The notes under the pieces are model-generated. The model ran no database searches and was not told the origin of the DNA. It saw nothing but the letters and a program-made list of their open reading frames with translations. Made by a program: the position numbers and the translations under genes. Below are positions 19,680 through 36,949 of a stretch of 64,000 bases of DNA, in pieces. How positions within the stretch are numbered: position 1 is the stretch's first letter; the number at the start of each line of letters is the position of its first letter. The DNA is from Candidatus Dormiibacterota bacterium (GTDB taxonomy: Bacteria; Acidobacteriota; Terriglobia; Acidiferrales; UBA7541): positions 561 through 64,560 of the forward strand of contig DATNNV010000031.1 in NCBI GenBank assembly GCA_035601655.1, given 5' to 3'.

Positions 19680-19728
19680 CCGTTGACCGTGATCCGTTAT
19701 CCGTGTCTCGTGATCCGTGTTTCGTACT
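19680..19728 (+). repeat. Degenerate heptamer tandem repeat (YCGTNNN x7)
   Basis: CCGTTGA CCGTGAT CCGTTAT CCGTGTC TCGTGAT CCGTGTT TCGTACT. Confidence 0.7.
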
Positions 19729-19793
19729 CGTGTTCGGGATGGCCTTCTCTCGCCGGGTAGCACCGCTGCGCCGTACACATTGCGGCTGCCCCG

Positions 19794-20161: not shown

Positions 20162-20316
20162 AGTTTTGCGATTTTTTGCAGGAAGAGCGAAGGAGAGTGG
20201 GACTGCGTGCCCTCGCAGTATTACCCAGAAGTAAGTGTACCACAGAACGGGAAAAAGTCAAGGAAAATCGGAAGAGTGGGGGGCGGGTGGCGTGAGGGTG
20301 GTTGGTCGGTGGTAAG

Positions 20317-20347
20317 AAAAGCGGCGGCGAGCCGCCGCACTCCCAAA
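20317..20347. repeat. REP-like family B copy
   Basis: AAAAGCGGCGGCGAGCCGCCGCACTCCCAAA; relatives at 13464, 22225 and 24986. Confidence 0.75.
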
Positions 20348-20383
20348 AAAGACGGGCCGGGCACTTGCGTGCGCCGGCCCGTT
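20345..20383 (-). terminator. Rho-independent terminator of the lipoprotein gene
   Basis: GACGGGCCGG...CCGGCCCGTT hairpin followed by T6 on the minus strand. Confidence 0.6.
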
Positions 20384-20410
20384 TGCCTTTTGCGGAGGCG
20401 GGGAAAGTCG

Positions 20411-21895: not shown

Positions 21896-22224
21896 TGGAT
21901 ACCCCATGGCGGAATTGATTTTGTTTGCCCACGTCCCATGGACACACGGATTCCCCGAATTAATGTAGCGCGGGAGGAGTGAAGGAGGCGGGGGTAAAAG
22001 GGAGCGGGTGTTCAAGTGTTAAATCAGGGAGGGGTGATGGGGAGTGGCGAGATGGGAGCTATGTGGGGGCGAATGGTGCGGCCAGGGTAAAGCCTGCGAT
22101 ACATAAGGCGGAATGGCGGCGACGGCTGGGTTGCGAATCTAAAGACTCGCCACTACGTGGGCTTGCTGTTTATGGTGGGAGGGTGGGAACGATTGGCGCT
22201 GCGGGATCGGGTTTCGGCGGACGG

Positions 22225-22254
22225 AAAAGCGGAGGCTAGCCTCCGCACTCCAAA
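22225..22254. repeat. REP-like family B copy
   Basis: AAAAGCGGAGGCTAGCCTCCGCACTCCAAA. Confidence 0.75.
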
Positions 22255-22301
22255 GGGGTGTGTTATGGTTGCGGATTCGATGGGATTGGGAAGGCTGGAC
22301 A

Positions 22302-24461
22302 TTGGCTAAGCGTGGGAATGGCAAGGGTGTGGTGGTGACGGGCGGCGCGGCGGGGGCGCGGGTGGAGCGGCGGTATGTGCCGTTAGAGGATGATCCGACG
22401 GTGGTTGGGGAGGGGATCGCGGATGGCGCCGGGGCAAACGGAAGCGCTGAGGATAACGGATCGCGGAGCACAGGCAAGAGTGCCTGTGCTACCGGGGCGG
22501 ACCCTGCAAAGGCGGGCGGCGGGGCGGGGGCGGTTACGATGCGGGAGGTGTTTGGGCCGGGGGGGTTGTTGGAGCGGTGCATGATGGGGGGGTATGAGCA
22601 CCGGGCTGGGCAGTTGGAGATGGCGGAGGCGGTGCATGATGCATTTGAGGGGCATCATCACGCGATTGTGGAGGCGGGAACGGGGACGGGGAAGACGCTG
22701 GCGTATTTGCTGCCGGCGATATGCAGCGGGCGGCGGGTGGTGATTTCGACGGCTACGAAATCGCTGCAGGAGCAGCTTTTTCAGAAGGATATTCCGTTTT
22801 TGCAGAAGCATTTTGCGCCGAACCTGAAAGTGGCGGTGATGAAGGGGCGGGCGAATTTCTTGTGCGTCGAGAAATTGAATCACATGCAGGACCAGGCTTT
22901 GCTGAAGGGCATGGACGAGATGGATGCGTTTCAGCAGATCAAAGGATGGTCGAAGCTGACGGAGACGGGAGACCGGGCGGAACTGACGTTTTTGCCGGAT
23001 GATTCGGAGTTGTGGTCGCGCCTCGATGCGCGCCGGGATACGTGCATGGGGCAGAAGTGTCCTTCGTTTGGGCCGTGTTTTGTGACGGGGATGCATCAAC
23101 GGGCCAAGGAAGCGGATTTGATTATCGTGAATCATCATTTGTTTTTCGCGGATCTAGCGCTGAAGCAGGACGATTTTGGGAGCATTTTGCCGGAGTATTC
23201 GGCGGTGGTGTTTGACGAAGCGCATGAGATGGAAGATGTGGCGAGCGATTATTTTGGGCGGCAGATTTCGAATTACCGGTTTGAGGAATTGGCGCGGGAT
23301 GCGGACATTGCGCTGCGATTGCTGAAATTGGGGACGCCGTCGTTGCTGCGTCGTACGCAGAAGATTCGGGAGAAGAGCCGGGCGTTTTTCGAGCTGTTTC
23401 CGGCGCGGGATGGGCGGTTTCCGTTTTCGCGGCAGGAACGCGAAGCGTTCTTGGAGCAGCATCGCGAGGGGTATGACGGGTTGGCATCGGCGCTGAAATC
23501 GGTGGAGACGGAATTTGCGGCCATGACGCAGAAGCCGGAGGAATTGCTGCGGCTGGGGCGGCGAAGCTTTGAGATGCGGCAGGAACTGGGGTTCTTGTTT
23601 GAATCGAATGAGAAGAATTATGTGTATTGGTACGAGCGGAGGAATAAGGGCGTGTTTCTGGCGGCGACGCCGATTGACGTGAGCCAGATTTTGCGGCAGC
23701 GGCTGTTCGAGCAGTTCGATACCGTGGTGCTGACATCGGCGACGCTGACGGTGGGAGGGCGATTTGAATTTATTCGGCAACGGCTGGGCATCGATCATGT
23801 GAAAGAGAATGCGTTGCCGCCGGAATTCGATTATCCGAAGCAGGCGCTGCTGTATTTGCCGCGGAATATGCCGGATGTGCGGAGTCCGGGATTTGCGGGT
23901 GGGGCGGCGGACGAAATTGTGAAGCTGCTGGAATTGAGCGAAGGGCGGGCGTTTTGTTTGTTCACGAGTTATTCGCAGATGAATGATTTGTACGAGCGGG
24001 TGCGCGGGCGGGTGAAGTTTCCGATGCTGCTGCAGGGGACGGCGCCGCGGTCGGCGCTGCTGGAACGGTTCAAGAATACAGATGGGGCGGTGTTGTTTGC
24101 CACGGCGAGCTTTTGGCAGGGAGTGGATGTGCCGGGGGAACAGCTTTCTTGCGTGATCGTGGACCGACTGCCGTTCGCGGTGCCCAGCGATCCGATCGTG
24201 GCGGCGCGAGTGGCGGCGTTGCAAGAGGAAGGGCGGAACGCGTTTGCGGAGTTTCAGGTGCCGGCGGCGGTGTTGGCGTTGAAGCAGGGATTTGGGCGGT
24301 TGATCCGGACGAAGACGGATCGCGGGGTGTTGGCGTTGCTCGATACGCGGATTCAGCGGATGCCGTATGGTAAAATTTTCTTGGCGTCGTTGCCGGGGTA
24401 TCGGGTGACGTCGGAGTTGGAGGATGTGGAGAGGTTTTTTGGGGTGGCTGGGCGCGGCTAG
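22302..24461 (+). CDS. DinG/YoaA-family ATP-dependent Fe-S DNA helicase
   Basis: EAGTGTGKT, DEAH, LTSATL, FWQGVDVPG, QGFGRLIR and Fe-S cysteines (NFLC...CMGQKC...C). Start uncertain (TTG 22302 or ATG 22539). Confidence 0.92.
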   Translation: MAKRGNGKGVVVTGGAAGARVERRYVPLEDDPTVVGEGIADGAGANGSAEDNGSRSTGKSACATGADPAKAGGGAGAVTMREVFGPGGLLERCMMGGYEHRAGQLEMAEAVHDAFEGHHHAIVEAGTGTGKTLAYLLPAICSGRRVVISTATKSLQEQLFQKDIPFLQKHFAPNLKVAVMKGRANFLCVEKLNHMQDQALLKGMDEMDAFQQIKGWSKLTETGDRAELTFLPDDSELWSRLDARRDTCMGQKCPSFGPCFVTGMHQRAKEADLIIVNHHLFFADLALKQDDFGSILPEYSAVVFDEAHEMEDVASDYFGRQISNYRFEELARDADIALRLLKLGTPSLLRRTQKIREKSRAFFELFPARDGRFPFSRQEREAFLEQHREGYDGLASALKSVETEFAAMTQKPEELLRLGRRSFEMRQELGFLFESNEKNYVYWYERRNKGVFLAATPIDVSQILRQRLFEQFDTVVLTSATLTVGGRFEFIRQRLGIDHVKENALPPEFDYPKQALLYLPRNMPDVRSPGFAGGAADEIVKLLELSEGRAFCLFTSYSQMNDLYERVRGRVKFPMLLQGTAPRSALLERFKNTDGAVLFATASFWQGVDVPGEQLSCVIVDRLPFAVPSDPIVAARVAALQEEGRNAFAEFQVPAAVLALKQGFGRLIRTKTDRGVLALLDTRIQRMPYGKIFLASLPGYRVTSELEDVERFFGVAGRG

Positions 24462-24477
24462 TGTCGCGTTGAGCTTC

Positions 24478-24539
24478 AGGGGCTAAAGCCCAGTTTGGTG
24501 GCTGGTTTAATGTCGGACCTAAAGGTCCGACCCCCTAAA
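24478..24539 (+). repeat. Paired REP-like hairpins (family C)
   Basis: GGGCTAAAGCCC and GTCGGACCTAAAGGTCCGAC-CCCCTAAA. A related inverted copy (GGGGGCTGAAAGCCCCCGCCTCCTAAA) lies at about 59540-59568. Confidence 0.6.
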
Positions 24540-24571
24540 GAGAACTGCGGCGGAGTTTCGATAGGAGAGAA

Positions 24572-24952
24572 ATGTTTCAGGTTAGCGTGGAAGAGACGTT
24601 TTCGGCGGGGCATGCGCTGCGGGGGTATCGCGGGAAGTGCGAGAACGTGCATGGACATAATTATCGTGTGCGGGTGACGCTGGAAGGGCCGGAGCTGGAT
24701 GGGATCGGCTTGCTGGTGGATTTTACGCGGGTGAAGCAGGTGGTGCGGGGGATTATGGGGGAGCTGGATCATCAGTTTATGAATGATCTGGAACCGTTCA
24801 AGACGGTGAATCCATCGGCGGAAAATGTGGCGAAGTATTTTTATGATGAGATTACGAGGCAGTTGACGGATTTGCCGGTGGGGGCGCGGGTGCGGGATGT
24901 GATTTTGTGGGAGACGGATACGAGCCGGGCGCAGTATCGGCCGGCGGTTTAG
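24572..24952 (+). CDS. queD: 6-carboxy-5,6,7,8-tetrahydropterin synthase
   Basis: FSAGH...KCENVHGHNY...LDHQFMN...NPSAEN...WET; AGGAG RBS. Confidence 0.93.
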   Translation: MFQVSVEETFSAGHALRGYRGKCENVHGHNYRVRVTLEGPELDGIGLLVDFTRVKQVVRGIMGELDHQFMNDLEPFKTVNPSAENVAKYFYDEITRQLTDLPVGARVRDVILWETDTSRAQYRPAV

Positions 24953-24985
24953 AAGCGCGCAGAACGGACGACGGCCGGGCGTCGG

Positions 24986-25015
24986 AAAAGCGGCGGCGAG
25001 CCGCCGCAGCCCAAA
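24986..25015. repeat. REP-like family B copy abutting the queE start codon
   Basis: AAAAGCGGCGGCGAGCCGCCGCAGCCCAAA directly followed by ATG 25016. Confidence 0.7.
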
Positions 25016-25693
25016 ATGTTTATAACGGAAATATTTAAGTCGATTCAGGGGGAGGGGACGCGGGCTGGGTTGCCGTGTGTGTTCGTGCGTTTGACGGGAT
25101 GCAATTTGCGGTGTACGTGGTGCGATACGGCGTATGCGTTTCATGGCGGGAAGAAGATGACGGTGGAAGAGGTGGTGGGGCGGGTGGGGGAGTTGGCGGG
25201 GCGCGATACGAGAGTGGTGCCGTTGGTGGAGTTGACTGGGGGGGAGCCGCTTTTGCAGGAGGGGATTTATCCGCTGGCGGAGCGGCTGGTGGCGGCGGGA
25301 TATACGGTGATGATGGAGACTAGCGGGGAACGGTTTGTGGGGCGGTTGCCGCGGGCGGTGATCAAGATTGTGGATGTGAAGTGTCCGGACTCGGGGGAGG
25401 CGGATACTTTTGAGTTGAAGAATCTCGCGGAGTTGAGCGGCGAGGATGAAGTTAAATTTGTGATTTCTTCGCGGCGGGATTATGAGTTTGCGCGGGAGTT
25501 TACGCGGGAGCATGGGTTGGCGGAGAAGGTAAAGGCGGTTTTGTTTTCGCCGGTGTTTGATGATCCGGAAGGGAAATGGAAAGGGTTGGAGGCGCGGACT
25601 TTGGTGGAATGGATTCTGGAGGATGGGTTGGCGGTGCGGCTGGGATTGCAGTTGCATAAGTTTGTTTGGGATCCGGCGACGAAAGGCGTGTGA
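25016..25693 (+). CDS. queE: 7-carboxy-7-deazaguanine synthase (radical SAM)
   Basis: EIFKSIQGEG, RLTGCNLRCTWCDT (CxxxCxxC), TGGEP and QLHK. Confidence 0.95.
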   Translation: MFITEIFKSIQGEGTRAGLPCVFVRLTGCNLRCTWCDTAYAFHGGKKMTVEEVVGRVGELAGRDTRVVPLVELTGGEPLLQEGIYPLAERLVAAGYTVMMETSGERFVGRLPRAVIKIVDVKCPDSGEADTFELKNLAELSGEDEVKFVISSRRDYEFAREFTREHGLAEKVKAVLFSPVFDDPEGKWKGLEARTLVEWILEDGLAVRLGLQLHKFVWDPATKGV

Positions 25694-25727
25694 AGTAAAG
25701 GAAGTACAGGATGTAAAGGAAATACAG
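25692..25727 (+). repeat. 9-bp tandem repeat x4
   Basis: GAAGTAAAG GAAGTACAG GATGTAAAG GAAATACAG. Confidence 0.75.
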
Positions 25728-25741
25728 GAACAGAGGGAATT

Positions 25742-26533
25742 GTGAGTAGCGGGAACGATCAGAGAAAAGCGGTGGTGCTGTTGAGCGGGGGGATGGATTC
25801 GTGTGTTTGCGCGGGGATGGCGATTGAGCGGCATAGGGCGGGGAATGTGGCGCTGGTGCATGCGAGCTATGGGCAGAGGACGGAAGCGCGGGAGCGGCGG
25901 GCGTTTAGCGAGATTGCGGATTTTTATGGCGTGGGGGAACGCGAGCGGCTAGTGGTGCGGCTGGAGCATTTTCGAGCGATTGGCGGGTCGGCGTTGACGG
26001 ATGAACGGATTGAGGTGCCGGAGAATGAGTTGGGCGCGGCGGCGGTGCGCGCGGATGGCGGCGGAGCGGCGAGCGCTGGTGCTATTCCGGTGACGTATGT
26101 GCCGTTTCGCAATGCGCATTTTCTTTCGGTGGCGGTGAGTTGGGCGGAAGCGATTGGGGCGGGGGCGATTTATATTGGAGCGGTGGAAGAAGATAGTTCG
26201 GGATATCCGGATTGCCGGCCGGAATATTACCGGGTGTTTCAGGAATTGATACGGGTGGGAACGAAGCCGGAGACGGAGATTGAGATAGTGACGCCGGTGA
26301 TCGGGATGAGGAAGAGCGAGATCGTGCGGTGCGGGGTGGCGCTGGGTGCGCCGCTGCATCTGACGTGGTCGTGCTATCAGAGCCAAGGTTGCCAAGGGGG
26401 CCAAGGTGGCCAAGGTGGCGAGGATTTGGCGTGCGGAGTGTGCGATAGTTGCGCGCTGCGGCTGCGCGCTTTTGCGGAAGCTGGAGTGGCGGACGCGATT
26501 TCGTACCGGCGGGCGATGGCGGCAGAGGGCTAG
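25742..26533 (+). CDS. queC: 7-cyano-7-deazaguanine synthase
   Basis: SGGMDS, YGQR, TYVPFRN, GYPDCR and TWSCY...CGVCDSC. Confidence 0.95.
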   Translation: MSSGNDQRKAVVLLSGGMDSCVCAGMAIERHRAGNVALVHASYGQRTEARERRAFSEIADFYGVGERERLVVRLEHFRAIGGSALTDERIEVPENELGAAAVRADGGGAASAGAIPVTYVPFRNAHFLSVAVSWAEAIGAGAIYIGAVEEDSSGYPDCRPEYYRVFQELIRVGTKPETEIEIVTPVIGMRKSEIVRCGVALGAPLHLTWSCYQSQGCQGGQGGQGGEDLACGVCDSCALRLRAFAEAGVADAISYRRAMAAEG

Positions 26534-26622
26534 GCTTGGAATTCGGGCAGGATGAGAGATAATAGGGCACACGCCAGCCGGAAGACGGGCAGGGGCTCCC
26601 CCAGCGAAAAGGAGAATCAGGC

Positions 26623-27792
26623 ATGAAGCGAATGGTGAAAACTTGGGTGCTCGCGGTGGCCGCGATTGCGGCGATCGCGTGTGCGTTTGCGCCGCGCGCG
26701 GCGGCACAGGGTGATGGATCGATCGCGGGACAAGTGATTGATGTGGCCGGAAAGCCGTGGGCGAATATCGGCATGCAAGCGGTGAGCGAGCAAGGCGTTA
26801 AGCAAGAAACGAAGACGGACAAAGATGGGAACTACGCGTTTCGCAGTTTGCGGAGCGGCGTTTATACGGTGATGGTGATTTTGCCGGCGCCGAACCCGCC
26901 GTTTGAGATCAAGTGCCGGGTGCAGGGCGGTCAAGAGACGAAAGTGAGCCCGAACTTCAAAGAGATCGTGGGCAAACAGGGAGCGGAAGCTGCGGAGCAG
27001 GTGAAGAAGCAGGAAGAGGAAAAGCAAAAGTTTGAGGGGATGAAAGGGCACTTCAGCGCGGGGACGGCGCTGTTAGAGCAGGAAAAGGCGGCGAAGGCGG
27101 AGTTGCAGAAAGCGGCGCCGGATCAACGGGATGCGGCGAAGCAGAAGTTGACGGAGCTTTCGAATCAGGCGTCGGCGGAATTTTCCGCGGCGCAGAAGGC
27201 GGCGCCGGAGAAAGACACGAACCAGCATTTGTTGTGGGCGAAGCTGGGGGAAAGCTACGACGTGGCGGGGCGGAATGACGAAGCGGCGCAAGCGTACCAG
27301 CAAGCGGTGACGGCGGCGGAAGCGATACCGAGCTTGAAGGGGCCGCAACTGGCGGGGTATTACAACAATTTGGGCAATGTGCTGGCGCGGGCTGGGAAGG
27401 TGGATGAAGCCAAAGTGGCGTACACGAAGAGCGCGGAAGTGGATCCGGCGAATGCGGCGACGGCGTGGCGGAACTTCGGGATCAGCTTGTACAACGCGAA
27501 CCGGCTGGCGGATGCGATCGAGCCGTTGCAGAAGGCGACGGAGATTGATCCGAAAAATGCGCAAGCGTGGTACTTGCTGGGAGCGTCGTTGCTGATGAAG
27601 ATGACGACGAAGCGAGTGGGAGACAAGGATCAGGTGCAACTAGCGCCGGGAACGATCGAGGCGTACCAGAAGGCGGTGGACCTGGATCCGAGCGGACCTT
27701 GGGGAGCCCAGGCGAAGCAAGGTCTGACGGACTTGCAAGCGATGGGCGCGGGCATCGACGTGAAAGTGAATATGAAAAAGAAAAAGTCGTAA
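26623..27792 (+). CDS. Secreted TPR protein with N-terminal carboxypeptidase-regulatory-like domain
   Basis: Signal peptide, GSIAGQVID...TKTDKDGNY and TPR motifs (YYNNLGNVLA, AWRNFGISLY, AWYLLG). Confidence 0.85.
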   Translation: MKRMVKTWVLAVAAIAAIACAFAPRAAAQGDGSIAGQVIDVAGKPWANIGMQAVSEQGVKQETKTDKDGNYAFRSLRSGVYTVMVILPAPNPPFEIKCRVQGGQETKVSPNFKEIVGKQGAEAAEQVKKQEEEKQKFEGMKGHFSAGTALLEQEKAAKAELQKAAPDQRDAAKQKLTELSNQASAEFSAAQKAAPEKDTNQHLLWAKLGESYDVAGRNDEAAQAYQQAVTAAEAIPSLKGPQLAGYYNNLGNVLARAGKVDEAKVAYTKSAEVDPANAATAWRNFGISLYNANRLADAIEPLQKATEIDPKNAQAWYLLGASLLMKMTTKRVGDKDQVQLAPGTIEAYQKAVDLDPSGPWGAQAKQGLTDLQAMGAGIDVKVNMKKKKS

Positions 27793-27813
27793 GAGAAAAG
27801 AGAAGTTCGAACG

Positions 27814-27851
27814 AGGCCGGCTTGCGGGAATGGAGCCGGCCTTTTCTTTTT
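27814..27851 (+). terminator. Rho-independent terminator; left boundary of the RiPP cluster
   Basis: AGGCCGGCT...AGCCGGCCT followed by TTTCTTTTT. Confidence 0.7.
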
Positions 27852-27872
27852 GGGATGGACGGCGGTTGCGGG

Positions 27873-28688
27873 CTATTTGTGGGTGAGGGTGCCGGTTGTT
27901 TTGGTGCGGCGGACGGCCCAAGCGAAAGCGCTCATGGATAGGGGAAGAAGAATCGCGGCGAAGAGGAGGAGAGCGACGAGCGGGCGCCAGAGTGAGGCGA
28001 GGGTGGCGCCTGTCAGCAGGGCGGCGCGCATGGCGTCGAGCGCGTAGGTGACGGGGTTGAGACGCGCGATTACTTGAAGCCACGCAGGAAGAATGGAAAC
28101 GGGAAAGAGCGTGCCTCCTACGATGCCGGTGATTCCGAGCACGAACCACTTCGCGGGATTGCCGCGCTTGAAGACGAGCAGGTAGCTGGAGGAGAGAATG
28201 CCGAGTCCGGAGAAGGCCAGCAGGGAAGCGAGAAGGACGGCGAAGACGGAAAGCCAATTCGCGGAACGCAGCGGGAAACCGAAGAGAATGGCGGACCAGA
28301 AGAAATAGACGGCGATGCGGAGAGTGGTGGCGACGAAAGGATAGAGCGCGGAACCGGCCACGAAAATGGGCAGGGAAGTTTGCGTGATGAGCAGGTGCTC
28401 GAGGGTGCCGGAATCGCGGGCTTCTTCGAGGCTATGATCGAAAGTGTCGAGGGCGGCGTTGAGATAGTCCAGAAAGACGAAACCGATAAGGGAGAAGGTG
28501 AAGTAGCTGCCGCCTTGCGGGAGAGCTTGCTGGAGTCCGGGGCTGTCGACGAAGCGCGCGACGTAATAGAAGGTGGCGGCACCGAAAAGGGCCTCGACGG
28601 CTTCGACGATAAACACGGTGCGATAGGAGCGCGCAATGGTTAGATCGCGCCAAAAGAACAGCCACATCTGGCGGAGTGCGGCGATCAT
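27873..28688 (-). CDS. ABC-2 type exporter permease (lasso cluster)
   Basis: About 6 TM helices, EEARDSGTLEHLL and FPVSILPAWLQVIARLNPVTYALDAMR. Confidence 0.9.
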   Translation of the reverse strand: MIAALRQMWLFFWRDLTIARSYRTVFIVEAVEALFGAATFYYVARFVDSPGLQQALPQGGSYFTFSLIGFVFLDYLNAALDTFDHSLEEARDSGTLEHLLITQTSLPIFVAGSALYPFVATTLRIAVYFFWSAILFGFPLRSANWLSVFAVLLASLLAFSGLGILSSSYLLVFKRGNPAKWFVLGITGIVGGTLFPVSILPAWLQVIARLNPVTYALDAMRAALLTGATLASLWRPLVALLLFAAILLPLSMSAFAWAVRRTKTTGTLTHK

Positions 28689-29533
28689 TCGACGGAAGCC
28701 TCGGTGTGAGGTTCGCCGCCGCGGCCGGTGAGGCGGAGAAAGACTTCTTCGAGCGTGGGCGCTGATGTGCGTCGCTGCAAAGCAGAGAGCGAGTCGCAGG
28801 CGAGCAAACGGCCGTGATCGATGATGGCAATGCGATCGGCGAGGCTTTCGACTTCGGGGAGGGTGTGGGAGGCGAAGAGAATGGAAGTGGCGCCGGGCTG
28901 AAGTACTTGCGTTTTGAGAAAGCGGCGGAACTCGGCGGCGGCGATGACGTCGATGCTGCGGGTGGGCTCGTCCAAGAGGAGTACGCGAGGACGATGGAGG
29001 AGAGCGCGGGCGAGGCTGAGGCGCTGAACGGTGCCGGAAGAAAGGGTGCGGACCTGGCGATCGAGGAATTCGCCAAGGGCGAACTGGGTGGCCAGCGTAG
29101 CGATGCGCTCTCGAGCCATGGAAAGGGAAAGGCCATTGAGCTGGCCGAAGAAAAGGAGATTTTGGCGAGCGGAGAGGCGCGGATAGAGGCCATGATCGGT
29201 GCCGGCGTGATAGCCGAGCTGGCGGCGGACGTCCCGCGAATGCGTGAGAGTGTCGTAGCCGGCGACGCGCGCGCGGCCGGCGGTGGGAAGGAGCAGGGTG
29301 GCGATAATGCGCAGGAGCGTGGACTTGCCTGCACCGTTGGCTCCGAGGAGGGCGACGGACTCGCCTTCGCGGACTTGCAGGGACACCTCCGCCAAGGCGG
29401 CGACGCTGGCTTTTTCAAAGGGCTGAAGGAAGGCGCGCCAACCGCTGCGCGCTGGCGGGAAGGACTTGTCGAGCGATTCGACGGAAATGGCGGGTGAAGT
29501 CACCAGGAGACTTATAGCGTGAGTGACGGGCAC
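28685..29533 (-). CDS. ABC exporter ATP-binding subunit (lasso cluster)
   Basis: GANGAGKST, LSSGTVQR, LLLDEP and SH switch. Start may be GTG 29503. Confidence 0.92.
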   Translation of the reverse strand: MPVTHAISLLVTSPAISVESLDKSFPPARSGWRAFLQPFEKASVAALAEVSLQVREGESVALLGANGAGKSTLLRIIATLLLPTAGRARVAGYDTLTHSRDVRRQLGYHAGTDHGLYPRLSARQNLLFFGQLNGLSLSMARERIATLATQFALGEFLDRQVRTLSSGTVQRLSLARALLHRPRVLLLDEPTRSIDVIAAAEFRRFLKTQVLQPGATSILFASHTLPEVESLADRIAIIDHGRLLACDSLSALQRRTSAPTLEEVFLRLTGRGGEPHTEASVE

Positions 29534-29691
29534 AAGACAATGCGGTTAGGGATGCGAAGTGGTGCGTGCCGGGGCGGACGGATGGCGCGTAGCGGAGCGC
29601 GCGAAACATGGATAGAATAGAGAACCGGACATCGCAAACCCCAGCCCCTGCAATGTCTTCGACCGCGGAGTGCCCGCGCAGGAGCCGAGAC

Positions 29692-29997
29692 ATGGTTTCA
29701 TTTACAGATCGTGCCAAAGTGCCCTCGCATGTGCTGATACGTTTCCTCGAGGAAGAGTCGGTGCTGCTGAACCTGGACACGGAGCGTTATTTCGGGCTGG
29801 ACGGGACGGGAACGCGGATGTGGCAGGCGGTCACCGCGGCGCCCAATATCTCCGTGGCTTACGGGGAGTTGCTCCAGGAGTTTGATGTCGAGCCGGAATT
29901 GCTGCGCACGAATTTGACGGATTTGCTCGGGCGGCTGCTGGACAACGGACTGCTCGAGGTGCGTCCTGGGGATGTGGGAACGGCTGCGGCGGTTTAG
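29692..29997 (+). CDS. PqqD-family RiPP recognition element (lasso B1)
   Basis: AGGAG RBS; ESVLLNLDTERYFGLDGTGTRMW...LLQEFDVEPELLRTNLTDLLGRLLDNGLL. Confidence 0.92.
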   Translation: MVSFTDRAKVPSHVLIRFLEEESVLLNLDTERYFGLDGTGTRMWQAVTAAPNISVAYGELLQEFDVEPELLRTNLTDLLGRLLDNGLLEVRPGDVGTAAAV

Positions 29998-30430
29998 CGC
30001 GCTGGATGGACAAGCGCAAAGGATGTTTCTGTGGGCGATGTTCGCGTTGCCACTGGTGTCGCAGAGCCTGAGGTGGCGCGGGCTTCGCGCGACGCAAGAA
30101 AGCCTGCAGCGGCGCCAAGCGCCGGGCAGGAAGCCTACTAAGTCCGAAAGCCAAAAGTTGGAAGTGACTGTGCGGATGGTGAAGGCCGCGGTGCGCCACG
30201 GCCTGGGTCATCCCACGTGTCTGGAAGAATCCTTGACGCTTTGGTGGCTGCTGGCGAGTCAGGGGATTCCCTCGGAAGTACGGATCGGCATCCGCAAACA
30301 GGCGGAGAATTTTGAGGCGCACGCGTGGGTGGAGCGCGATGGCATCGCGTTGAACGAGCCCGAAGCAAAGCACCGGCATTACGAGGCCTTTGCATCAGAA
30401 TTTCCCCCGGCTGGAGGAGAGATACGATGA
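29972..30430 (+). CDS. Lasso peptide leader peptidase (B2, transglutaminase-like)
   Basis: PTCLEESL (catalytic Cys), RIGIR and FEAHAWVE (catalytic His). Overlaps the RRE and cyclase genes. Confidence 0.92.
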   Translation: MWERLRRFSALDGQAQRMFLWAMFALPLVSQSLRWRGLRATQESLQRRQAPGRKPTKSESQKLEVTVRMVKAAVRHGLGHPTCLEESLTLWWLLASQGIPSEVRIGIRKQAENFEAHAWVERDGIALNEPEAKHRHYEAFASEFPPAGGEIR

Positions 30431-32274
30431 GCGGGTTCGCGGGCGTGGTCAGCAGCGATGGCGCACCCGTGGACGCGGGCCTATTGGGGCGGATGGCGGA
30501 GCAGCTGGCGTTTCGCGGACCGGACGCAAGCGCCGTACGAATACTGGATGGCGCGGGGTTCTGCTTTACATTGATGCGCACCGGTCCCGCGCCGCAAGAG
30601 GAAGTGCAGCCACTCAGTCTTGACGGACGGCAGTGGCTGATCGGGGACATCCGTTTGGACGGGCGCGAGGATCTGCGTAAAGCGCTGAGCCAAGCCGGCC
30701 AAGAAACTCCTGCGACGATGGCGACGGATGAAGAGCTGACGCTGCGGGCCTGGCAGTTGCGCGGCGCAGAATCCGGCGAGCTGCTGATGGGGGACTACGC
30801 GTTCGCCGTATGGGAGCCGGGTGTCCGGCGGCTGGTCTGCGTGCGCGATGTGATTGGAGTGCGGCCGTTCTTTTATGGCCAGGTGGGCAACACGCTGTGC
30901 TTCAGCAACACGCTGGAGGTGTTGCGGATGGTGCCGGGCATGGATCTGCGGGTGGATGCGCATTTTGTCGGCGACTTTCTGCTGGAGGGCTGGTGCTTGG
31001 ACCCGGAACGGACGGTGCATCGAGGCATCCGGCGGCTGAAGGCCGGACACCTGGTGCAATTTGAGAATGGAGTTGCGGCAACGCGGCGCTTTGCCGAGTT
31101 GCCGATGAGAGCGCCGCTGACGTACCGGCGGGCTGAGGACTACGTCGAACAGTTTCAATCGCTCTTGCAAGCTGCGGTGCGCGAACGGATGCCGCGAGCC
31201 CCTGCTGCTTTCTTCATGAGCGGAGGGTTGGACTCCACGAGCGTGGCTGCGACGGCGGCGCAGACCGCGGAGGGCGCTGGTGCGAAAGGAAGTTTTCGCG
31301 CGTATACGGTCGATTTTCGTCCGATCCTGGAGGACGACGAGGCACGGTTTGCAATAAAGGCGGCCGGGTATATTGAAATGTCCATCGAGATCGTGCGGGT
31401 AGGCGACGAGCGGCCGTTCGGCTGTTGGACTGATAACAGTCTTCGATGGCCTGAGCCGCTGCATGAACCGTTTCAATCGCGACACGTGCAGATGTGCCGG
31501 GAAGTGAGTGGGTTTGCCCGAGTGAGTATGTCGGGCGACGGAGGCGACGACATTCTTTCGGGAACGGCGACACCATATGCCCGCTATTTAGCGAGGGACG
31601 GGCAGTTCCTGAAGTTGGCGACGGCCTTCACCGGATTCCTGTGGCGCCAAAAACGGCTGCCGACAATGGGTACCGGACTAAGAGCCCGCTTGCGGAAATG
31701 GAGAACCGCAGAGCGGGAGGAGGGCTCGCTACCGCAGTGGCTGCAACCCGAATTCGCCAGGAAGCTGGGCCTCCGGGAGAGGCAGAAAGAGCTGAGGCGC
31801 GGGTTGCGATACACGCATGCGTTTCATCCCGGAGGATACGCTGCGTTGTCGCAGGGGTACTGGGCAGGGGTTTTGGAAGATGAGGACGCCGCGTGGACCG
31901 GGGTGCCGCTAGAACGGAGAGCGCCGTTTCTGGACCGGCGGCTGGTGGAATTTCTGCTGCAAGTGCCGCCAGTGCCCTGGTGCATGGATAAAGAGCTTCT
32001 GCGCGAGGCCATGCGAGGATTACTGCCCGAGGAAGTGCGTACCCGGCCGAAGACGCCGCTCCGGCAGGAGCCGTTTGCGGCTCAGGCAGAGCGGTTGAAG
32101 TGGAGCCCGTTGCCGCTGGAGCGGAATCATCCCATTCTGGACGAATTTGTGGACTGGAAAAAACTGGAAGCAACTTTGCAAAGGGTCCCGGGTTCGCAAT
32201 TATGGGACGAATTGACGCCGGTCTCGCTGCACCACTGGGCGAAAGCCGTTGAAAATGACGGGGTAATTCTGTAG
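30427..32274 (+). CDS. Lasso cyclase (asparagine-synthetase-like C protein)
   Basis: Begins MSGFAG, so the glutaminase Cys of AsnB is replaced by Ser. RGPD, RDVIGVRPFFY, SGGLDSTS, SGDGGDD and RAPFLDRRLVEF. ATGA coupling to B2. Confidence 0.92.
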   Translation: MSGFAGVVSSDGAPVDAGLLGRMAEQLAFRGPDASAVRILDGAGFCFTLMRTGPAPQEEVQPLSLDGRQWLIGDIRLDGREDLRKALSQAGQETPATMATDEELTLRAWQLRGAESGELLMGDYAFAVWEPGVRRLVCVRDVIGVRPFFYGQVGNTLCFSNTLEVLRMVPGMDLRVDAHFVGDFLLEGWCLDPERTVHRGIRRLKAGHLVQFENGVAATRRFAELPMRAPLTYRRAEDYVEQFQSLLQAAVRERMPRAPAAFFMSGGLDSTSVAATAAQTAEGAGAKGSFRAYTVDFRPILEDDEARFAIKAAGYIEMSIEIVRVGDERPFGCWTDNSLRWPEPLHEPFQSRHVQMCREVSGFARVSMSGDGGDDILSGTATPYARYLARDGQFLKLATAFTGFLWRQKRLPTMGTGLRARLRKWRTAEREEGSLPQWLQPEFARKLGLRERQKELRRGLRYTHAFHPGGYAALSQGYWAGVLEDEDAAWTGVPLERRAPFLDRRLVEFLLQVPPVPWCMDKELLREAMRGLLPEEVRTRPKTPLRQEPFAAQAERLKWSPLPLERNHPILDEFVDWKKLEATLQRVPGSQLWDELTPVSLHHWAKAVENDGVIL

Positions 32275-32277
32275 AGT
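32249..32277 (+). promoter_or_regulatory. Putative internal sigma70-type promoter for the precursor gene
   Basis: TTGAAA-N17-TAGAGT overlapping the cyclase stop codon, followed by GGGAGA RBS and ATG 32296. Confidence 0.5.
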
Positions 32278-32295
32278 CGAGGCAGGGAGAACCGA

Positions 32296-32451
32296 ATGAG
32301 TCGGCCGGCAGAGGCTTCTGCGAAGAAACCATACCAGGCGCCGAAATTGCTCGTTTACGGCAACTTGACAGAGATAACCCAGGCACGCTCCACCAAGCCG
32401 AGTTCAAAAGACGGAGCGACCATGGGTGTGAAGCGCAAGACAGGCCGATAG
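32296..32451 (+). CDS. Lasso peptide precursor (51 aa; absent from ORF track)
   Basis: MSRPAEASAKKPYQAPKLLVYGNLTEITQ-ARSTKPSSKDGATMGVKRKTGR*: a full YxxPxLxxxGxxxxxT leader motif, GGGAGA RBS, located between cyclase and kinase. Confidence 0.92.
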   Translation: MSRPAEASAKKPYQAPKLLVYGNLTEITQARSTKPSSKDGATMGVKRKTGR

Positions 32452-32492
32452 AGTTCCCCAGCCAACTTGTCCAGCGTCTTACTACGCTTCCC

Positions 32493-33509
32493 GTGAGTTA
32501 TCGCTATCGCTTATACGGATTGAGCCTTGAGGCAGAAGAAAGCCTGCCGGGACTCGAAGACAATAGCGCAGCTCGCGAGGAAAGCTTTGTCCGTTTGCAG
32601 CTTGGCGCGGAGCCGGACTGGGTCCGGCACGCGCGCAGCCTTGCCTCTCGCCGCGTCCATCAGCTGGAGGCCAAGGCCGAAAGCGACGATCCCGCCCTTG
32701 TTATAACCTCGTACGGAGAAGACCGTTTTTTTGGGTTGGCGTATACGGACGGAACCCAATTTTTGACCGATGCGGATGGCGGGCGCCTGTGGGGTGCATG
32801 GGCGGAGCCGTGGACCAAGGAAGATTTCGCAACGTATCTGTTGGGGCCGGTATTGGGCTTCGTGCTCCGGCGGAGAGGTGTGACGCCGCTGCACGCGAGC
32901 GCCGTTTGTGTTGCGGGGAAGGCCGTCGTTTTCTGCGGCGATGCGCAAGCGGGTAAATCAACGACAGCGGCGGCACTGGGACTGCGCGGCGTGCTGGTCC
33001 TATGCGAAGATATCGCGGCGCTGAGGTTGGCCGACAATCGCTACTGGGTGGAGCCGGGTTATCCGCGCGTTTGCCTGTGGCCCGACAGCGTGGAAAAGCT
33101 GCTGGGACGCGGCGATGCGCTGCCGCTCTTGACGCCGAATTGGGAGAAGCGCTACTTGCCGCTGGACGGAGTGCTGGCGGGCTTCCAACGGGAAAGATGC
33201 CCGGTGGGCGCGGTTTATATGCTGGCTGAGCGAGCGGCGGAGGGGCGCGCGCCCCGCGTCGAAAAGATGACTCCGAAAGAGGCGCTGCTGGAATTAGTGC
33301 AGAATACGTACATGAATTGGCTGCCGGATCGCGAACAGCGGGCGCGGGAGTTCGAGGCGCTGGCGAAATTGGTTGCGCAGGTACCGGTGCGACGGATGGT
33401 GGCGCACTGCGATGCGAGGCGCATGGACGATCTGTGCCGCGTCATCCTGGCGGATGCCGCGAGCTTGCTCACGGGCCGGATCGCAGCTTCTGAGCCGGTG
33501 CAGCGCTGA
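32493..33509 (+). CDS. HPr-kinase-like RiPP kinase
   Basis: PLHASAV, Walker A GDAQAGKSTTAA, LCEDIAAL and PGYPRVCLWPDS, in lasso cluster context. Confidence 0.85.
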   Translation: MSYRYRLYGLSLEAEESLPGLEDNSAAREESFVRLQLGAEPDWVRHARSLASRRVHQLEAKAESDDPALVITSYGEDRFFGLAYTDGTQFLTDADGGRLWGAWAEPWTKEDFATYLLGPVLGFVLRRRGVTPLHASAVCVAGKAVVFCGDAQAGKSTTAAALGLRGVLVLCEDIAALRLADNRYWVEPGYPRVCLWPDSVEKLLGRGDALPLLTPNWEKRYLPLDGVLAGFQRERCPVGAVYMLAERAAEGRAPRVEKMTPKEALLELVQNTYMNWLPDREQRAREFEALAKLVAQVPVRRMVAHCDARRMDDLCRVILADAASLLTGRIAASEPVQR

Positions 33510-33510
33510 A

Positions 33511-34656
33511 ATGTACGATCTCGATCAATACGGCGCAATGATCGTGGACGGCACGCGAACTTCCGCGTACATGCAAGCGATCGCGCGGGCGGTGCGGCCG
33601 GGCGACGTGGTCGTGGATCTGGGATGCGGTCCTGGGCTGCTTGCGTTGCTGGCATGCCGCGCGGGAGCGAAGCGGGTGTACGCGATTGAAGGCAACGAAA
33701 GTGTGGCGTTCGCGAGAGAGCTGGCAGCGGCCAACGGCTATGCCGACCGGATCGAAATCCTACACGGGTCGTCGCGGCGGATGGAATTGCCGGAGCGCGC
33801 GAACGTAATCGTTTCTGATTTGCGCGGCGTGCTGCCGCTTCTTGGCGATGCCATCGCTTCTATCGATGATGCGCGGGAGCGGTTTCTTGCTCCCGGTGGC
33901 GCGATGATCCCGGCGTCGGATCGTTTGCATGGAGCGCTGGCGGGCGCGGCGGAGTTCTACGCGCAAATCGTCTCACCGTGGAAGGACTCGCTGGACGGCG
34001 TGCGGCTATCGCCGATGCGGGAACGCGCGCTCAACACAACGTACAGCGTGCGCTTCGACGCCGGAAAGATGATGAGCGAAGCTCAGGAATGGGGCCGGTT
34101 TGAGTATCCGTTGGGCGCGAAAGGGCGAGCAGCCGCGAACTTGAGATTTGAGGCATTGCGCGATGGCACGGTGCATGGGATTTGCTTGTGGTTCGATACG
34201 GTCCTGTTTCAGGAGATCGGCTATTCGAGTGCGCCGGCCGCGCCTGGCGCGCCGGAAACCGTCTACGGACAATTGTTTCTGCCGTGGATCGAGCCCGTGA
34301 AGGTTGAGGCAGGCCAGGAGATTTTGGTTGATTTACACGCGGACCCGGTCGGGGACGGCTACATCTGGCGGTGGGACACGACGATTCCGGGAGAAGAGAA
34401 TGCGCGAACACTTCGGCAGTCCACGATGGAAGGCGTGCCGTTTTCGCTCGAGGTGCTGCGAAGGCGCGCCACGGAATTTGTGCCGAAGGCGTCGCCGTTC
34501 GGTCAGGCGGAAGCGTGGGTGCTGCAGAGCATGAATGGAACGACCTCGCTGCAAGAAATTGCGGACGGAGCGGCAGCGCGGTTTCCGAAAGTGTTCCGCA
34601 ATTCGCAGGAAGCGCTGCAGCTGGTTTCCAGGCTTTCGGACGAGTTTGCGCTGTAA
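33511..34656 (+). CDS. SAM-dependent methyltransferase with PRMT-like fold and C-terminal PqqD/RRE-like helices
   Basis: MIVDGTRTSAY, VVDLGCGPGLL, AGAKRVYAIE, VIVSDLRG, ARERFLAPGGAMIP and HGICLWFD. Tail WVLQSMNGTTSLQEIADGAAARFP. ATG 33511. Confidence 0.85.
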   Translation: MYDLDQYGAMIVDGTRTSAYMQAIARAVRPGDVVVDLGCGPGLLALLACRAGAKRVYAIEGNESVAFARELAAANGYADRIEILHGSSRRMELPERANVIVSDLRGVLPLLGDAIASIDDARERFLAPGGAMIPASDRLHGALAGAAEFYAQIVSPWKDSLDGVRLSPMRERALNTTYSVRFDAGKMMSEAQEWGRFEYPLGAKGRAAANLRFEALRDGTVHGICLWFDTVLFQEIGYSSAPAAPGAPETVYGQLFLPWIEPVKVEAGQEILVDLHADPVGDGYIWRWDTTIPGEENARTLRQSTMEGVPFSLEVLRRRATEFVPKASPFGQAEAWVLQSMNGTTSLQEIADGAAARFPKVFRNSQEALQLVSRLSDEFAL

Positions 34657-34684
34657 TCTGAAGTGGCCCAAGACGGACGGCAGC

Positions 34685-35851
34685 TTGCGAACGACATCGC
34701 CATTAAGCGAACTCGGAGCTTCCGCGGAGTGGCAGATTCTGCTGGAGTGCGCTGCGACGCGCGGTGATCCGGCTGGCTTGAACGAACTGCTGCGGAAGGC
34801 GAATTGGGATTTTCTGATCGAGCTTGCCGAAGAGCACGGCGTTATTGGCATGGTTGCGGCGCGGCTCCGCGAGTGCGACGAGACGATCGTGCCGGCGGCG
34901 TTTCGCGGGCAATTACTGGAACGACAGCGATCTCACGTGCTTTCCGCATTGAGCTTGATCGCGGAAATGATTCGCATCCTGAACCGCTTCGGCGAGGCGG
35001 GCATTCAGGCGCTGGTGCTGAAAGGGCCGGCGCTTTCGCTGCAGGCCTACGGCGATGCGACGGCGCGGCAATATGGCGACGTGGATCTGCTGGTGAGGCA
35101 AAAAGACATTTATCGGGCCACGGAGATCATGACGCTGGCTGGATTTGACGCGGACGTGCCGCTAGCGGCTGTTGCTGCCGGCAAGATTCCCGGCGAGTAC
35201 CTATTCTTGCGGACGAATACCAAAGTGATCGTGGAGTTGCACACCGAAAAAACGCTGCGCTACTTTCCGAATACCCTGGCGATGGAAAGATTGTTCGACC
35301 AGCATACGACGTTGGATTTTAACGGGCATGCGGTGCCGACGCTGTCGAGCGAAGATGCGCTGGTGGCGATGTGCACGCATGGAGCGAAGCATTGTTGGGA
35401 GCGGCTGATGTGGATCGCGGATGTTTCGGCAATGTTGAGGCGGCAGACGGGAATGGATTGGGAAGGTGTCGCGCGGATCGCGGAGAGTTTGGGTGCGCAG
35501 CGCATTGTTTACACGGGGTTGTTGCTGTCGCGCGAGCTTTTGCGTGCGCCGGTGCCTGCTGCTGTGGAAGAGCAGGCGCGTGCGGACCGGTGGGCGTGCA
35601 AGTTGGCGAGGAGGATCGAGGCGTGGCTGCCGGCTGCTGGAGAGGCATCGCCGGGATTGCTGCGCCGCGCTGTCTTTCGGGCGCAGATGCGCGGCGGGTT
35701 TTTGCACGGGATCGGCTACCTCGCGAGACTTTTGTTTTCACCGACTGAAGAGGATTGGAGAGAGGGTCACGAGCACAAGAGTTCGCGGCTTCTGGAAACG
35801 GGGCGGCGGCTGGTTCGTCTGGCCGGAAAATACGGACGAGATCCCAATTAG
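34685..35851 (+). CDS. Nucleotidyltransferase family protein (NTP_transf_5-like, RiPP-associated)
   Basis: LVLKGPALS, RQYGDVDLLV, VELH and HGAKHCWERLMWIADV. Start uncertain (TTG 34685). Confidence 0.85.
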   Translation: MRTTSPLSELGASAEWQILLECAATRGDPAGLNELLRKANWDFLIELAEEHGVIGMVAARLRECDETIVPAAFRGQLLERQRSHVLSALSLIAEMIRILNRFGEAGIQALVLKGPALSLQAYGDATARQYGDVDLLVRQKDIYRATEIMTLAGFDADVPLAAVAAGKIPGEYLFLRTNTKVIVELHTEKTLRYFPNTLAMERLFDQHTTLDFNGHAVPTLSSEDALVAMCTHGAKHCWERLMWIADVSAMLRRQTGMDWEGVARIAESLGAQRIVYTGLLLSRELLRAPVPAAVEEQARADRWACKLARRIEAWLPAAGEASPGLLRRAVFRAQMRGGFLHGIGYLARLLFSPTEEDWREGHEHKSSRLLETGRRLVRLAGKYGRDPN

Positions 35852-35881
35852 CAGCGGGACGACGGCAGGAAGGACAAAAGG

Positions 35882-35915
35882 AAAAGGCCCGGAGCATTTG
35901 TTCCGGGCCTTTTTT
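35882..35915. terminator. Bidirectional rho-independent terminator; right boundary of the RiPP cluster
   Basis: AAAAGGCCCGGAGC-ATTT-GTTCCGGGCCTTTTTT. Confidence 0.85.
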
Positions 35916-35932
35916 GTTGTGATGGATGGAAA

Positions 35933-36949
35933 TTAGATGTTAGTGCGGTGCATAATCGTGCGCTTCGCTCTGGGAGCAGGCGCCGGGAGTTCGACGGTCA
36001 GCGAAATCTCGCTCTTGTTGCGCAGGACGCCCAGCCTGACGGTGGCGCCTTTCTCATTGCGCTTGGCAGAGAGCTTTTCGCGAAGCTCGCCGATGGTGCG
36101 GAGACGTTCGCCGTTGAGCGAAGTGATGACGTCGCCCGCTTTCAGGCCGGCTTTCTCGGCTGGCGAGCCGGAATTGACGCCGCGCACTAGTATTCCTTCC
36201 CCATCCGGCACGCCGAAGAAAGTGCCAAGCTGGCCGCTCAGATCTTCCGCGTCGATGCCGAGGCGCGGCTGGCCGCCCAGGAGCAGGCCGTTGCCCCATT
36301 CGACGCGCGGGAGCTCTGCGACTTCGGGCATGTCCGGCACTTCGGGTATGCGAAATGCGAAAGCGCCGGGCGTCGCGGGTGCGGACCACACGCGCTGACC
36401 TTGTTCTGTGTTGCCCAAGGTGACGCTGAGGGTCTGCGCGCGGCCGTCGCGCACGACCGTGAGTTGCACGGTGCGGCCGGCGGGAATCTCGCGGATCATG
36501 CGCCGGAACTGTGCGGTGCCTTCCACGCGCTGGCCGTTGATTTCCGTGACGACGTCATTTTCCTTCAGCCCGCCTTTTGCGGCGGGGCTGTCCGAAATGA
36601 TCTTGCCGAGAACCACGCCGCGTTCCGCGGATAGTTTGTGTTCTTTGGCGAAATCGGAATCGACTTCGTGGGTTTCCACGCCGAGCCAGCTGGCGCCCTC
36701 GTCGCCCAGCATAACCGTAAAGTCTCGGACCTCCGGCTCCTGCACGCGCACCAGCGTTCGCGCGGACTCTTGAAGTTCGCGGTCGCTGATCGCGGAATCG
36801 GCTTGAGATTGCACCTTTTGAAGTTTTTCCTCGAGCTTCGCTTTGTCTTCTTGTCCGGGGGAGCGCGTAGCCGAAGGACTGGGTAAGGCGATCAAGCCGA
36901 CGCTGAGCGCCGCGATGCCCGCACCGATTGTAAGGATTTGTTTGTTCAT
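35933..36949 (-). CDS. Exported tandem-PDZ protein with no visible protease domain
   Basis: WLGV...DSPAAKGGLKENDVV and RLGI...GSPAEKAGLKAGDVI. Confidence 0.85.
   Translation of the reverse strand: MNKQILTIGAGIAALSVGLIALPSPSATRSPGQEDKAKLEEKLQKVQSQADSAISDRELQESARTLVRVQEPEVRDFTVMLGDEGASWLGVETHEVDSDFAKEHKLSAERGVVLGKIISDSPAAKGGLKENDVVTEINGQRVEGTAQFRRMIREIPAGRTVQLTVVRDGRAQTLSVTLGNTEQGQRVWSAPATPGAFAFRIPEVPDMPEVAELPRVEWGNGLLLGGQPRLGIDAEDLSGQLGTFFGVPDGEGILVRGVNSGSPAEKAGLKAGDVITSLNGERLRTIGELREKLSAKRNEKGATVRLGVLRNKSEISLTVELPAPAPRAKRTIMHRTNI

Follow-up and report, generated by a model that had tools for sequence, protein, structure and literature searches.

What would a bacterium make with a lasso-peptide operon that carries, besides a peptide kinase and a nucleotidyltransferase, a homologue of the typically eukaryotic arginine methyltransferases? 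The question is raised by a locus in the window, by which we mean the whole 64,000-nucleotide stretch analysed here (contig DATNNV010000031.1), where the genes for lasso-peptide maturation are joined by those for three tailoring enzymes: an HprK-like kinase, a methyltransferase with the fold of the protein arginine methyltransferases (PRMTs) and a PF14907 nucleotidyltransferase. Judging from gene content and conservation, we consider it likely that this is a functional lasso cluster belonging to a widespread and as yet uncharacterised subfamily that is distinguished by this kinase, methyltransferase and nucleotidyltransferase.

The locus consists of nine intact open frames at 27873-35851, each with a significant Pfam or NCBIfam match: a divergent pair of ABC-2 transporter genes and a seven-gene operon on the plus strand, in the order B1 (PqqD), B2, cyclase C, precursor, HprK-like kinase, PRMT-fold methyltransferase and PF14907 nucleotidyltransferase. 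The preliminary description of this DNA had proposed a complete and tightly packed lasso cluster, and its gene assignments, gene order and packing hold for all nine genes: the two ABC genes overlap by 4 nucleotides and B1 and B2 by 26, B2 and C share the ATGA at 30427-30430, and a single nucleotide separates the kinase stop from the methyltransferase ATG. B1 (29608-29997, plus strand) is a PqqD-like leader-recognition protein, i.e., a recognition element (RRE) of the kind acting on peptides that are made by ribosomes and altered after translation (RiPPs), and matches PqqD (PF05402) above the cut-off with E 4e-12; it counts 129 residues from the ATG at 29608, and in three relatives (L050, L051 and L053) it is called at 101 residues, equivalent to a start at the ATG at 29692. 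B2 (29972-30430, plus strand; 152 residues) is a transglutaminase-like leader peptidase that matches Transglut_core3 (PF13471, E 4e-21) and lasso_biosyn_B2 (NF033537, E 9e-23; 81 bits against a cut-off of 33), and the Cys, His and Asp of this type of Cys protease are visible in its translation. C (30427-32274, plus strand; 615 residues) is an asparagine-synthetase-like macrolactam cyclase (Asn_synthase, PF00733, E 9e-38); its N-terminus reads Met-Ser-Gly and hence lacks the glutaminase Cys. Thus, B1, B2, the cyclase and the leader motif of split-B lasso systems are all present, and the one tested feature that is missing is a ring acceptor at core position 7-9.

Is this a singular assembly? The enzyme combination is peculiar neither to this genome nor to Acidobacteriota. 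A scan for the methyltransferase across one genome per prokaryotic species returned 47 loci, and about 28 of these keep the same order from B1 to the nucleotidyltransferase; they come from Acidobacteriota, Cyanobacteria, Alphaproteobacteria (Sphingomicrobium), Deinococcota (Trueperaceae), Gemmatimonadota (Gemmatimonas), Chloroflexota (Anaerolineae) and Desulfobacterota (Desulfobaccales). More than 2,200 relatives of the methyltransferase, of about 380 residues, are present in the protein database, many of them auto-named "protein arginine N-methyltransferase 1". On these sequence comparisons, an arrangement kept in dozens of genomes rules out chance. Further, three long metagenome contigs preserve the series QueC, TPR, ABC, B1, B2, C, precursor, kinase, methyltransferase, nucleotidyltransferase, PDZ, DUF4097 and TonB in the same order, with the identity of the methyltransferase falling as low as 56%; such full synteny at deep divergence, housekeeping flanks included, indicates that the cluster is old and vertically kept in this lineage. 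Within the GTDB family of the window, 28 of 200 sampled species (14%) have the methyltransferase and 103 of 200 the kinase, and in its genus 11 of 20 sampled species have the methyltransferase. The source genome, a 3.64-Mb metagenome-assembled genome (MAG) that is 81% complete, had been called a probable acidobacterium from the sequence, which fits its named relatives, Acidobacteriota MAGs and Candidatus Acidoferrum. In the same family, kinase clusters lacking the methyltransferase (L074-L093) are far commoner than those with it, and one genus-level group of these (L086, L087, L091 and L092) has a quite different core, which is His-rich and contains Cys.

The DNA of the source genome is present in soil metagenomes, and contigs in one soil metatranscriptome match B1, the C-precursor-kinase junction, the kinase and the nucleotidyltransferase at 90-98% identity, which weakly hints at transcription of close relatives in soil. 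Some stretches of the cluster are without reads in X3, in X7 and in parts of the RNA data, which is not evidence of absence. These observations bear on a first rival explanation, namely that the tailoring genes or the entire cluster are silent or decaying, with the methyltransferase being here by happenstance. Its patchiness within the family (28/200) and the existence of homologues about 52-53% identical outside lasso clusters, one of them by a transposase gene (L052, L055-L057), speak for such an explanation. However, all nine frames are open with their catalytic motifs intact, the adjacency of kinase and methyltransferase is kept across phyla, synteny is kept over deep divergence and the RNA-library contigs cover several cluster genes; taken together, these make silence or decay very improbable.

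What, then, would a functional cluster be expected to make? The precursor gene (32296-32451, plus strand) encodes 51 residues, has a GGGAG Shine-Dalgarno motif 8 nucleotides 5' of its start and matches the lasso-peptide family NF033528 with 33.9 bits, against a cut-off of 33. Its product falls into a 29-residue leader, which fits YxxPxLx3Gx5Tx exactly with Thr at -2, and a 22-residue core, ARSTKPSSKDGATMGVKRKTGR. Alignment of 24 precursors (that of the window and 23 relatives) shows no variation in the Pro and Gly of the leader motif or in Thr(-2); this invariance of Thr(-2), together with the exact fit of the leader, puts the predicted cleavage site behind Thr(-2)-Gln(-1). The core has seven basic residues (three Arg among them), ends in RKTGR and has Asp10 as its one acidic residue, in keeping with its earlier description as atypical. 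With the cut at the Thr(-2) site and Asp10 as the sole Asp or Glu, the ring would run from Ala1 to Asp10 and comprise ten residues. By comparison, a range of 7-9 residues is given in a 2026 review of lasso-peptide modifications (PMC13352647), and a 2025 structure-prediction tool likewise works with rings of 7-9 residues. We found no paper describing a 10-residue lasso ring in the open full-text literature (8.4 million texts, with subscription-only papers outside the search).

It might accordingly be asked whether the product is a threaded peptide with a 10-residue ring at all, or whether B2 cleaves one or two positions deeper into the core, which would leave a conventional ring of 9 or 8 residues, or an unthreaded branched-cyclic peptide is formed. 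The lack of a characterised lasso ring larger than 9 residues and of aromatic plug residues in the tail would favour either of these outcomes, as would pseudomycoidin, which is reported to be unthreaded when produced without its kinase and nucleotidyltransferase (PMC6993621). About 55 cognate cores were compared. No acceptor Asp or Glu is present at position 7-9 in the core of the window, and the relatives have the acceptor Asp at 9, 10 or 11, with position 9 in most cores, 10 in many and 11 in two. Asp10 occurs in all but one of the closest relatives of the window. The length differences fall within the ring segment rather than at its N-terminus, as in two close relatives that both start with Ala, one with Asp9 and the other with Asp10. 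The invariant Thr(-2) and these Asp-shifting indels (from 9 to 10 or 11) inside the ring segment thus argue against a displaced cut, and the part of the plug could be taken by a bulky Thr near the C-terminus that bears a phospho-glycosyl or phospho-nucleotidyl group. On this balance, we regard the smaller-ring and unthreaded alternatives as rather unlikely.

Two further observations concern the precursor. A sigma-70-like match, TTGAAA-17-TAGAGT (32249-32277, plus strand), falls within the cyclase gene at its 3' end, 19 nucleotides upstream of the precursor ATG, and might serve the precursor as an internal promoter; two such matches were found in the region against 1.3 expected, which is no more than chance. 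In six loci (L001, L002, L003, L005, L006 and L070) two different precursors are adjacent, and L070 also has two kinase-methyltransferase pairs.

As to where the tailoring would take place, the kinase and its associated motif point to the C-terminus. The HprK-like peptide kinase (32493-33509, plus strand; 338 residues) matches TIGR04352 with E 2e-7, and the best PDB match of its family profile is HPr kinase (E 5e-5). Comparison with 18 relatives shows no variation at His134, Gly149, Gly154-Lys155-Ser156-Thr157 or Asp173, and the conserved His, P-loop Gly/Lys/Ser and Asp correspond to residues shown to be essential in BsfK (PMC10368454). In every methyltransferase-bearing precursor recovered from the sample of the window's own family, a [KR][TS] motif stands 0-3 residues from the C-terminus (RKT-GR here), and the same is true of most loci of other phyla. 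The core ends in RKTGR, and a C-terminal Ser as phospho-acceptor is not present. Most of 20 kinase clusters lacking the methyltransferase in the same family, many of which lack the nucleotidyltransferase too, show the same Asp9 and [KR]T; the motif therefore tracks the kinase. From this conservation, we infer Thr20 to be the phospho-acceptor.

The PF14907 nucleotidyltransferase (PsmN/BsfN-like; 34685-35851, plus strand) matches NTP_transf_5 (PF14907) with E 1e-58. Its frame is open from 34535, and the start is probably the TTG at 34685, since the resulting 388 residues match the 388-389 residues of its relatives. All of 11 relatives compared keep Lys-Gly, Tyr-Gly, Arg, Asp-x-Asp and two His unchanged. 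Elsewhere in the same genome, a second cassette (contig C77:20337-23358; L094:5338-8358, minus strand) encodes a B1 of 99 residues, a B2 of 153 residues, an HprK-like kinase of 327 residues and a PF14907 nucleotidyltransferase of 407 residues, which are 23-30% identical to the proteins of the window; no cyclase gene and no YxxPxL precursor were found within the 11.9 kb covered, and the contig ends 3.4 kb upstream.

The most distinctive component is the methyltransferase (33511-34656, plus strand; 381 residues), an S-adenosylmethionine (SAM)-dependent enzyme with the type-I PRMT fold that matches PrmA (PF06325) and PRMT5_C (PF17286) in Pfam. Its family profile recovers PRMT1, PRMT6, PRMT2 and CARM1 from the PDB with E about 1e-45, and its AlphaFold model, with a predicted local distance difference test score (pLDDT) of 85.9, matches PRMT6, CARM1, PRMT1 and Hmt1 in Foldseek searches (E 1e-28 to 1e-26; template modelling scores of 0.72-0.84). 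By these profile and model comparisons, it is a true type-I PRMT homologue with Rossmann and beta-barrel domains. The preliminary description of a PRMT-like enzyme thus stands with regard to fold and homology; its arginine-binding signature is lost, and arginine methylation is not to be assumed. Specifically, the lasso-linked clade has S-D-x-R-G (SDLRG here) in place of S-E-W-M-G, with an Arg newly in the loop. The first Glu of the double-E motif has given way to an Asp that does not vary in an alignment of 28 sequences and that all tabulated lasso-linked loci share; the second is Asp in the window and, across the clade, Asp, His, Arg, Gln or Gly. In place of the THW loop, the enzyme of the window has VYG and almost the whole clade [VI]YG. 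In contrast, more distant non-lasso relatives (L032, L034-L036 and L038) keep both Glu residues (S-E-W/T...E) and T-H-W, the latter being retained by most non-lasso relatives.

The cognate cores speak to the same issue. Many have no Arg (e.g., L001 and L004), that of L011 has neither Lys nor Arg, and those of L021 and L024 have neither Ser nor Thr. Among the methyltransferase-bearing cores, no type of residue proved to be shared by all; Met is frequent in the tails and missing in several, including that of the close relative L050. It follows that there is no universal side-chain acceptor, and the altered double-E and THW signature together with the many Arg-less cores indicates that the methyl acceptor is probably not arginine. 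An acceptor of anionic character is suggested by the Arg gained in the loop, and our best guess, held loosely, is the C-terminal carboxylate, the sole such group that all cores share, or a phosphate. A complex prediction of the methyltransferase with the precursor and SAM scored 0.02 and is uninformative either way.

The competing possibility is that the enzyme still N-methylates basic side chains, either Arg18 and Lys19 before the Thr or other Arg and Lys residues of the core, yielding a methyl-arginine or methyl-lysine lasso peptide. It draws on the strong PRMT homology and fold, on the Pfam match to PrmA, a lysine and alpha-amine methyltransferase, and on the basic residue before Thr or Ser in nearly all methyltransferase-bearing precursors. 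In the sub-clade of the window, moreover, both double-E positions are acidic (Asp103 and Asp113), and Arg-Lys-Thr/Ser is found at the end of each of the four cognate cores. However, the presence of [KR][TS] in kinase-only clusters explains the basic residue without recourse to the methyltransferase, the second Glu position is variable in the clade, THW has become VYG, and the core of L011 has no Lys or Arg and those of L001 and L004 no Arg. We regard N-methylation as rather unlikely and, loosely, prefer an anionic acceptor.

The methyltransferase also has a C-terminal tail (residues ~306-381, ~75 residues) that is modelled with four helices and no strands at a pLDDT of 88. The top VIA-align match of this tail is PqqD 3g2b (Z 5.9, a root-mean-square deviation of 2.2 A over 49 residues, 29% identity), and the lasso B1-leader complex 6jx3 scores lower (Z 4.4); Pfam PqqD matches three of five tails below threshold (E 0.02-0.04). 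Profile-profile comparison of the tail with the B1 family of the cluster gave no similarity (probability 1.9%), and a Foldseek search of it against the PDB returned nothing at E 0.001, its highest-probability match being again PqqD 3g2b (0.60, E 2.8). On the model, it is plausible that the tail is RRE-like and binds the leader. Beyond the lasso clusters, same-genus loci (L052, L055-L057) encode methyltransferase homologues of 51-54% identity, one of them beside a Transposase_mut gene; L057 has two copies, each paired with a nucleotidyltransferase, and neither a kinase nor a cyclase is close by. Of these five copies, three read VHG rather than VYG.

How does the cluster relate to the characterised systems? 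Lasso genes accompanied by a kinase and a nucleotidyltransferase were known, as the preliminary description had said, in clusters of the paeninodin (PMC9266682) and pseudomycoidin (PMC6993621) types, and bsf (PMC10368454) is a further case. The pseudomycoidin cluster of Bacillus pseudomycoides DSM 12442 (psmA, C, K, B1, B2, N, D; PMC6993621) combines, like that of the window, a lasso core with an HprK-like kinase and a PF14907-type nucleotidyltransferase. There, the C-terminus is phosphorylated and subsequently hexosylated by PsmK and PsmN, which the authors propose to be a topological (third-way) lasso lock, and a similar placement of the modification, at or near the C-terminus, is suggested here. 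It differs in lacking a methyltransferase, in having a C-terminal Ser as the acceptor as against a Thr in RKT two residues from the end, in coming from Bacillota, in its type of exporter and in having no 10-residue ring. The paeninodin-type systems (PadeK, ThcoK, SyanK; PMC9266682) share with the window an HprK-related kinase acting on the leader-bearing precursor and a split B1/B2; their kinases target a C-terminal Ser, and their clusters have no PRMT-like enzyme. A third comparison is with bsf (bsfA, B1, B2, C, D, K, N; PMC10368454), a Gram-negative lasso cluster from Bradymonas sediminis FA350, which shares with the window the presence of both kinase and nucleotidyltransferase, the same kinase catalytic motif and a phosphorylation site other than a C-terminal Ser; in contrast to the window, BsfK targets Ser3, the leader has Ile(-2) and a methyltransferase is lacking. 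Relative to all three, the cluster of the window stands apart by a predicted acceptor other than a C-terminal Ser, a larger predicted ring and the added PRMT-fold enzyme.

SAM-dependent tailoring of lasso peptides, as we propose it here, has precedents in lassomycin and StspM/LasF (C-terminal methyl ester) and in cellulonodin-2 and lihuanodin, where a PIMT homologue generates an aspartimide. Carboxylate O-methylation of the lassomycin/StspM type is one candidate reaction for the enzyme of the window, but the known lasso methyltransferases are of the O-methyltransferase or PIMT families and are neither PRMT homologues nor coupled to a kinase. Eukaryotic PRMT1, PRMT6 and CARM1 have the same Rossmann and beta-barrel architecture, about 26% identity to the enzyme of the window and template modelling scores of 0.77-0.84 against its model; the enzyme of the window differs from them in the altered double-E and THW, the Arg in the substrate loop and the extra four-helix, possibly PqqD-like tail. 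In the same 8.4 million full texts, including the June 2026 review (PMC13352647) and with the same limit as to subscription-only papers, neither a connection between lasso peptides and a PRMT-like enzyme nor a description of this enzyme set came to light. The preliminary proposal of an undescribed RiPP subclass is upheld as far as the lack of a describing paper goes; the cluster belongs, however, to a subfamily of tailored lasso peptides and not to a new RiPP class. A paper on lasso peptides from soil metagenomes (PMC9064862) has acidobacterial lasso clusters, though not this enzyme set. A likeness to lariocidin and triculamin was considered and set aside: it is compositional only, the peptide of the preprint has a Ser1-Asp8 ring and 18 residues, its cluster is a different one that includes a clostripain-like peptidase and a GNAT, and no sequence is printed there that could be aligned.

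Briefly, we advance the following pathway. B1 would bind the YxxPxL leader and B2 would cut after Thr(-2)-Gln(-1), whereupon C would link the amine of Ala1 to Asp10 to form a 10-residue macrolactam around a 12-residue tail. The HprK-like kinase may phosphorylate Thr20 in [KR][TS], probably on the leader-bearing precursor, as in the case of paeninodin and BsfA, and the PF14907 enzyme could then add a hexose or a nucleotide to the Thr20 phosphate, as PsmN does. The resulting bulky C-terminal group may act as the lower lock for an unusually wide ring. The neofunctionalised PRMT-fold enzyme would methylate a non-arginine acceptor, with the C-terminal carboxylate or the phosphate as the best guess and N-methylation of Lys or Arg as the alternative, and the ABC-2 pair would export the product. 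In its boldest form, this pathway would yield the first lasso peptides with 10- or 11-residue rings, their threading held by a built plug: a phosphorylated Thr extended by a nucleotidyl or glycosyl group, with an O-methyl cap added by a PRMT homologue re-aimed to an anionic acceptor. Such a plug would be especially useful for a 10-residue ring without aromatic tail residues; we offer the full conjunction as a speculation that is doubtful as a whole.

Several points weigh against the reading adopted here. The product is predicted from the genes. At the level of family models, NCBIfam lasso_PqqD models match B1 below their curated cut-offs, and the best NCBIfam match of C is indeed the lasso cyclase NF033535 (E 7e-73), yet below the cut-off of that model. 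A 10-residue macrolactam is without characterised precedent, and with no obvious bulky plug residues in the core (no aromatic residues in the tail) threading is uncertain. The Thr20 site derives from motif conservation, the core also containing Ser3, Thr4, Ser7, Ser8 and Thr13, and BsfK shows that such kinases can hit other positions, there Ser3 (PMC10368454). The assignment of the methyl acceptor is a guess, and the double Asp with Arg-Lys-Thr/Ser cores leaves Arg or Lys methylation a live rival for this lineage. Finally, the RNA-library contigs may come from contaminating DNA.

The cluster is set off from its surroundings on both sides, and the terminators that had been proposed as its boundaries are there. 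On the left, between a convergent TPR gene (plus strand) and the ABC permease gene (minus strand), a G+C-rich hairpin with an 8-bp stem and a T tract (27815-27851) was read by eye from the sequence: the hairpin at 27815-27841 is followed by TTTTCTTTTT, and it had been missed by the terminator scan for its loop of more than 8 nucleotides. On the right, the scan found a hairpin at 35882-35913 with a 12-bp stem and an A run and a T run on its sides, which is a bidirectional terminator between the nucleotidyltransferase gene (plus strand) and the PDZ gene (minus strand). The ABC-2 type permease (27873-28688, minus strand; 271 residues; ABC2_membrane, PF01061, E 4e-16) is a putative exporter or immunity subunit and is syntenic in relatives L050, L051, L053 and L059-L061; the DrrA-like ABC transporter ATPase (28685-29533, minus strand; 282 residues) matches ABC_tran (PF00005, E 2e-31) and, below the cut-off, TIGR01188 drrA (E 4e-61). 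The left flank has a helicase, QueC and the TPR protein and the right flank the PDZ protein, DUF4097 and TonB_C, neither being lasso-related; as had been noted, no isopeptidase-like gene was found among the flanking genes on either side. The cluster lies in a stretch of very strong plus-strand excess of G over C, with a GC skew of +0.15 to +0.44 per 2 kb across 18000-36000 of the window; the excess peaks at 24-26 kb, continues through the minus-strand ABC genes and changes sign on both sides. In this region of highest skew, a 461-residue frame (24476-25861, minus strand) has no Pfam match, is antisense to several plus-strand frames and may not be a real gene.

What is new here is thus not a single odd cluster but a large lasso subfamily, cross-phylum and uncharacterised, that combines a PRMT homologue with a probably re-aimed active site, a conserved C-terminal motif for tailoring and over-size predicted rings. 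Lasso peptides are valued as antibiotic and engineering scaffolds, and the tailoring reactions known for them are few. Elucidation of the product would reveal new RiPP enzyme chemistry, if the PRMT-fold enzyme acts on the lasso peptide; further, the product would show whether post-translational groups can stand in for steric-lock residues and by what route bacteria gave a new use to an arginine-methyltransferase fold that is typical of eukaryotes. For the lineage of the window, whose core is very cationic, an RNA- or membrane-directed activity is conceivable.

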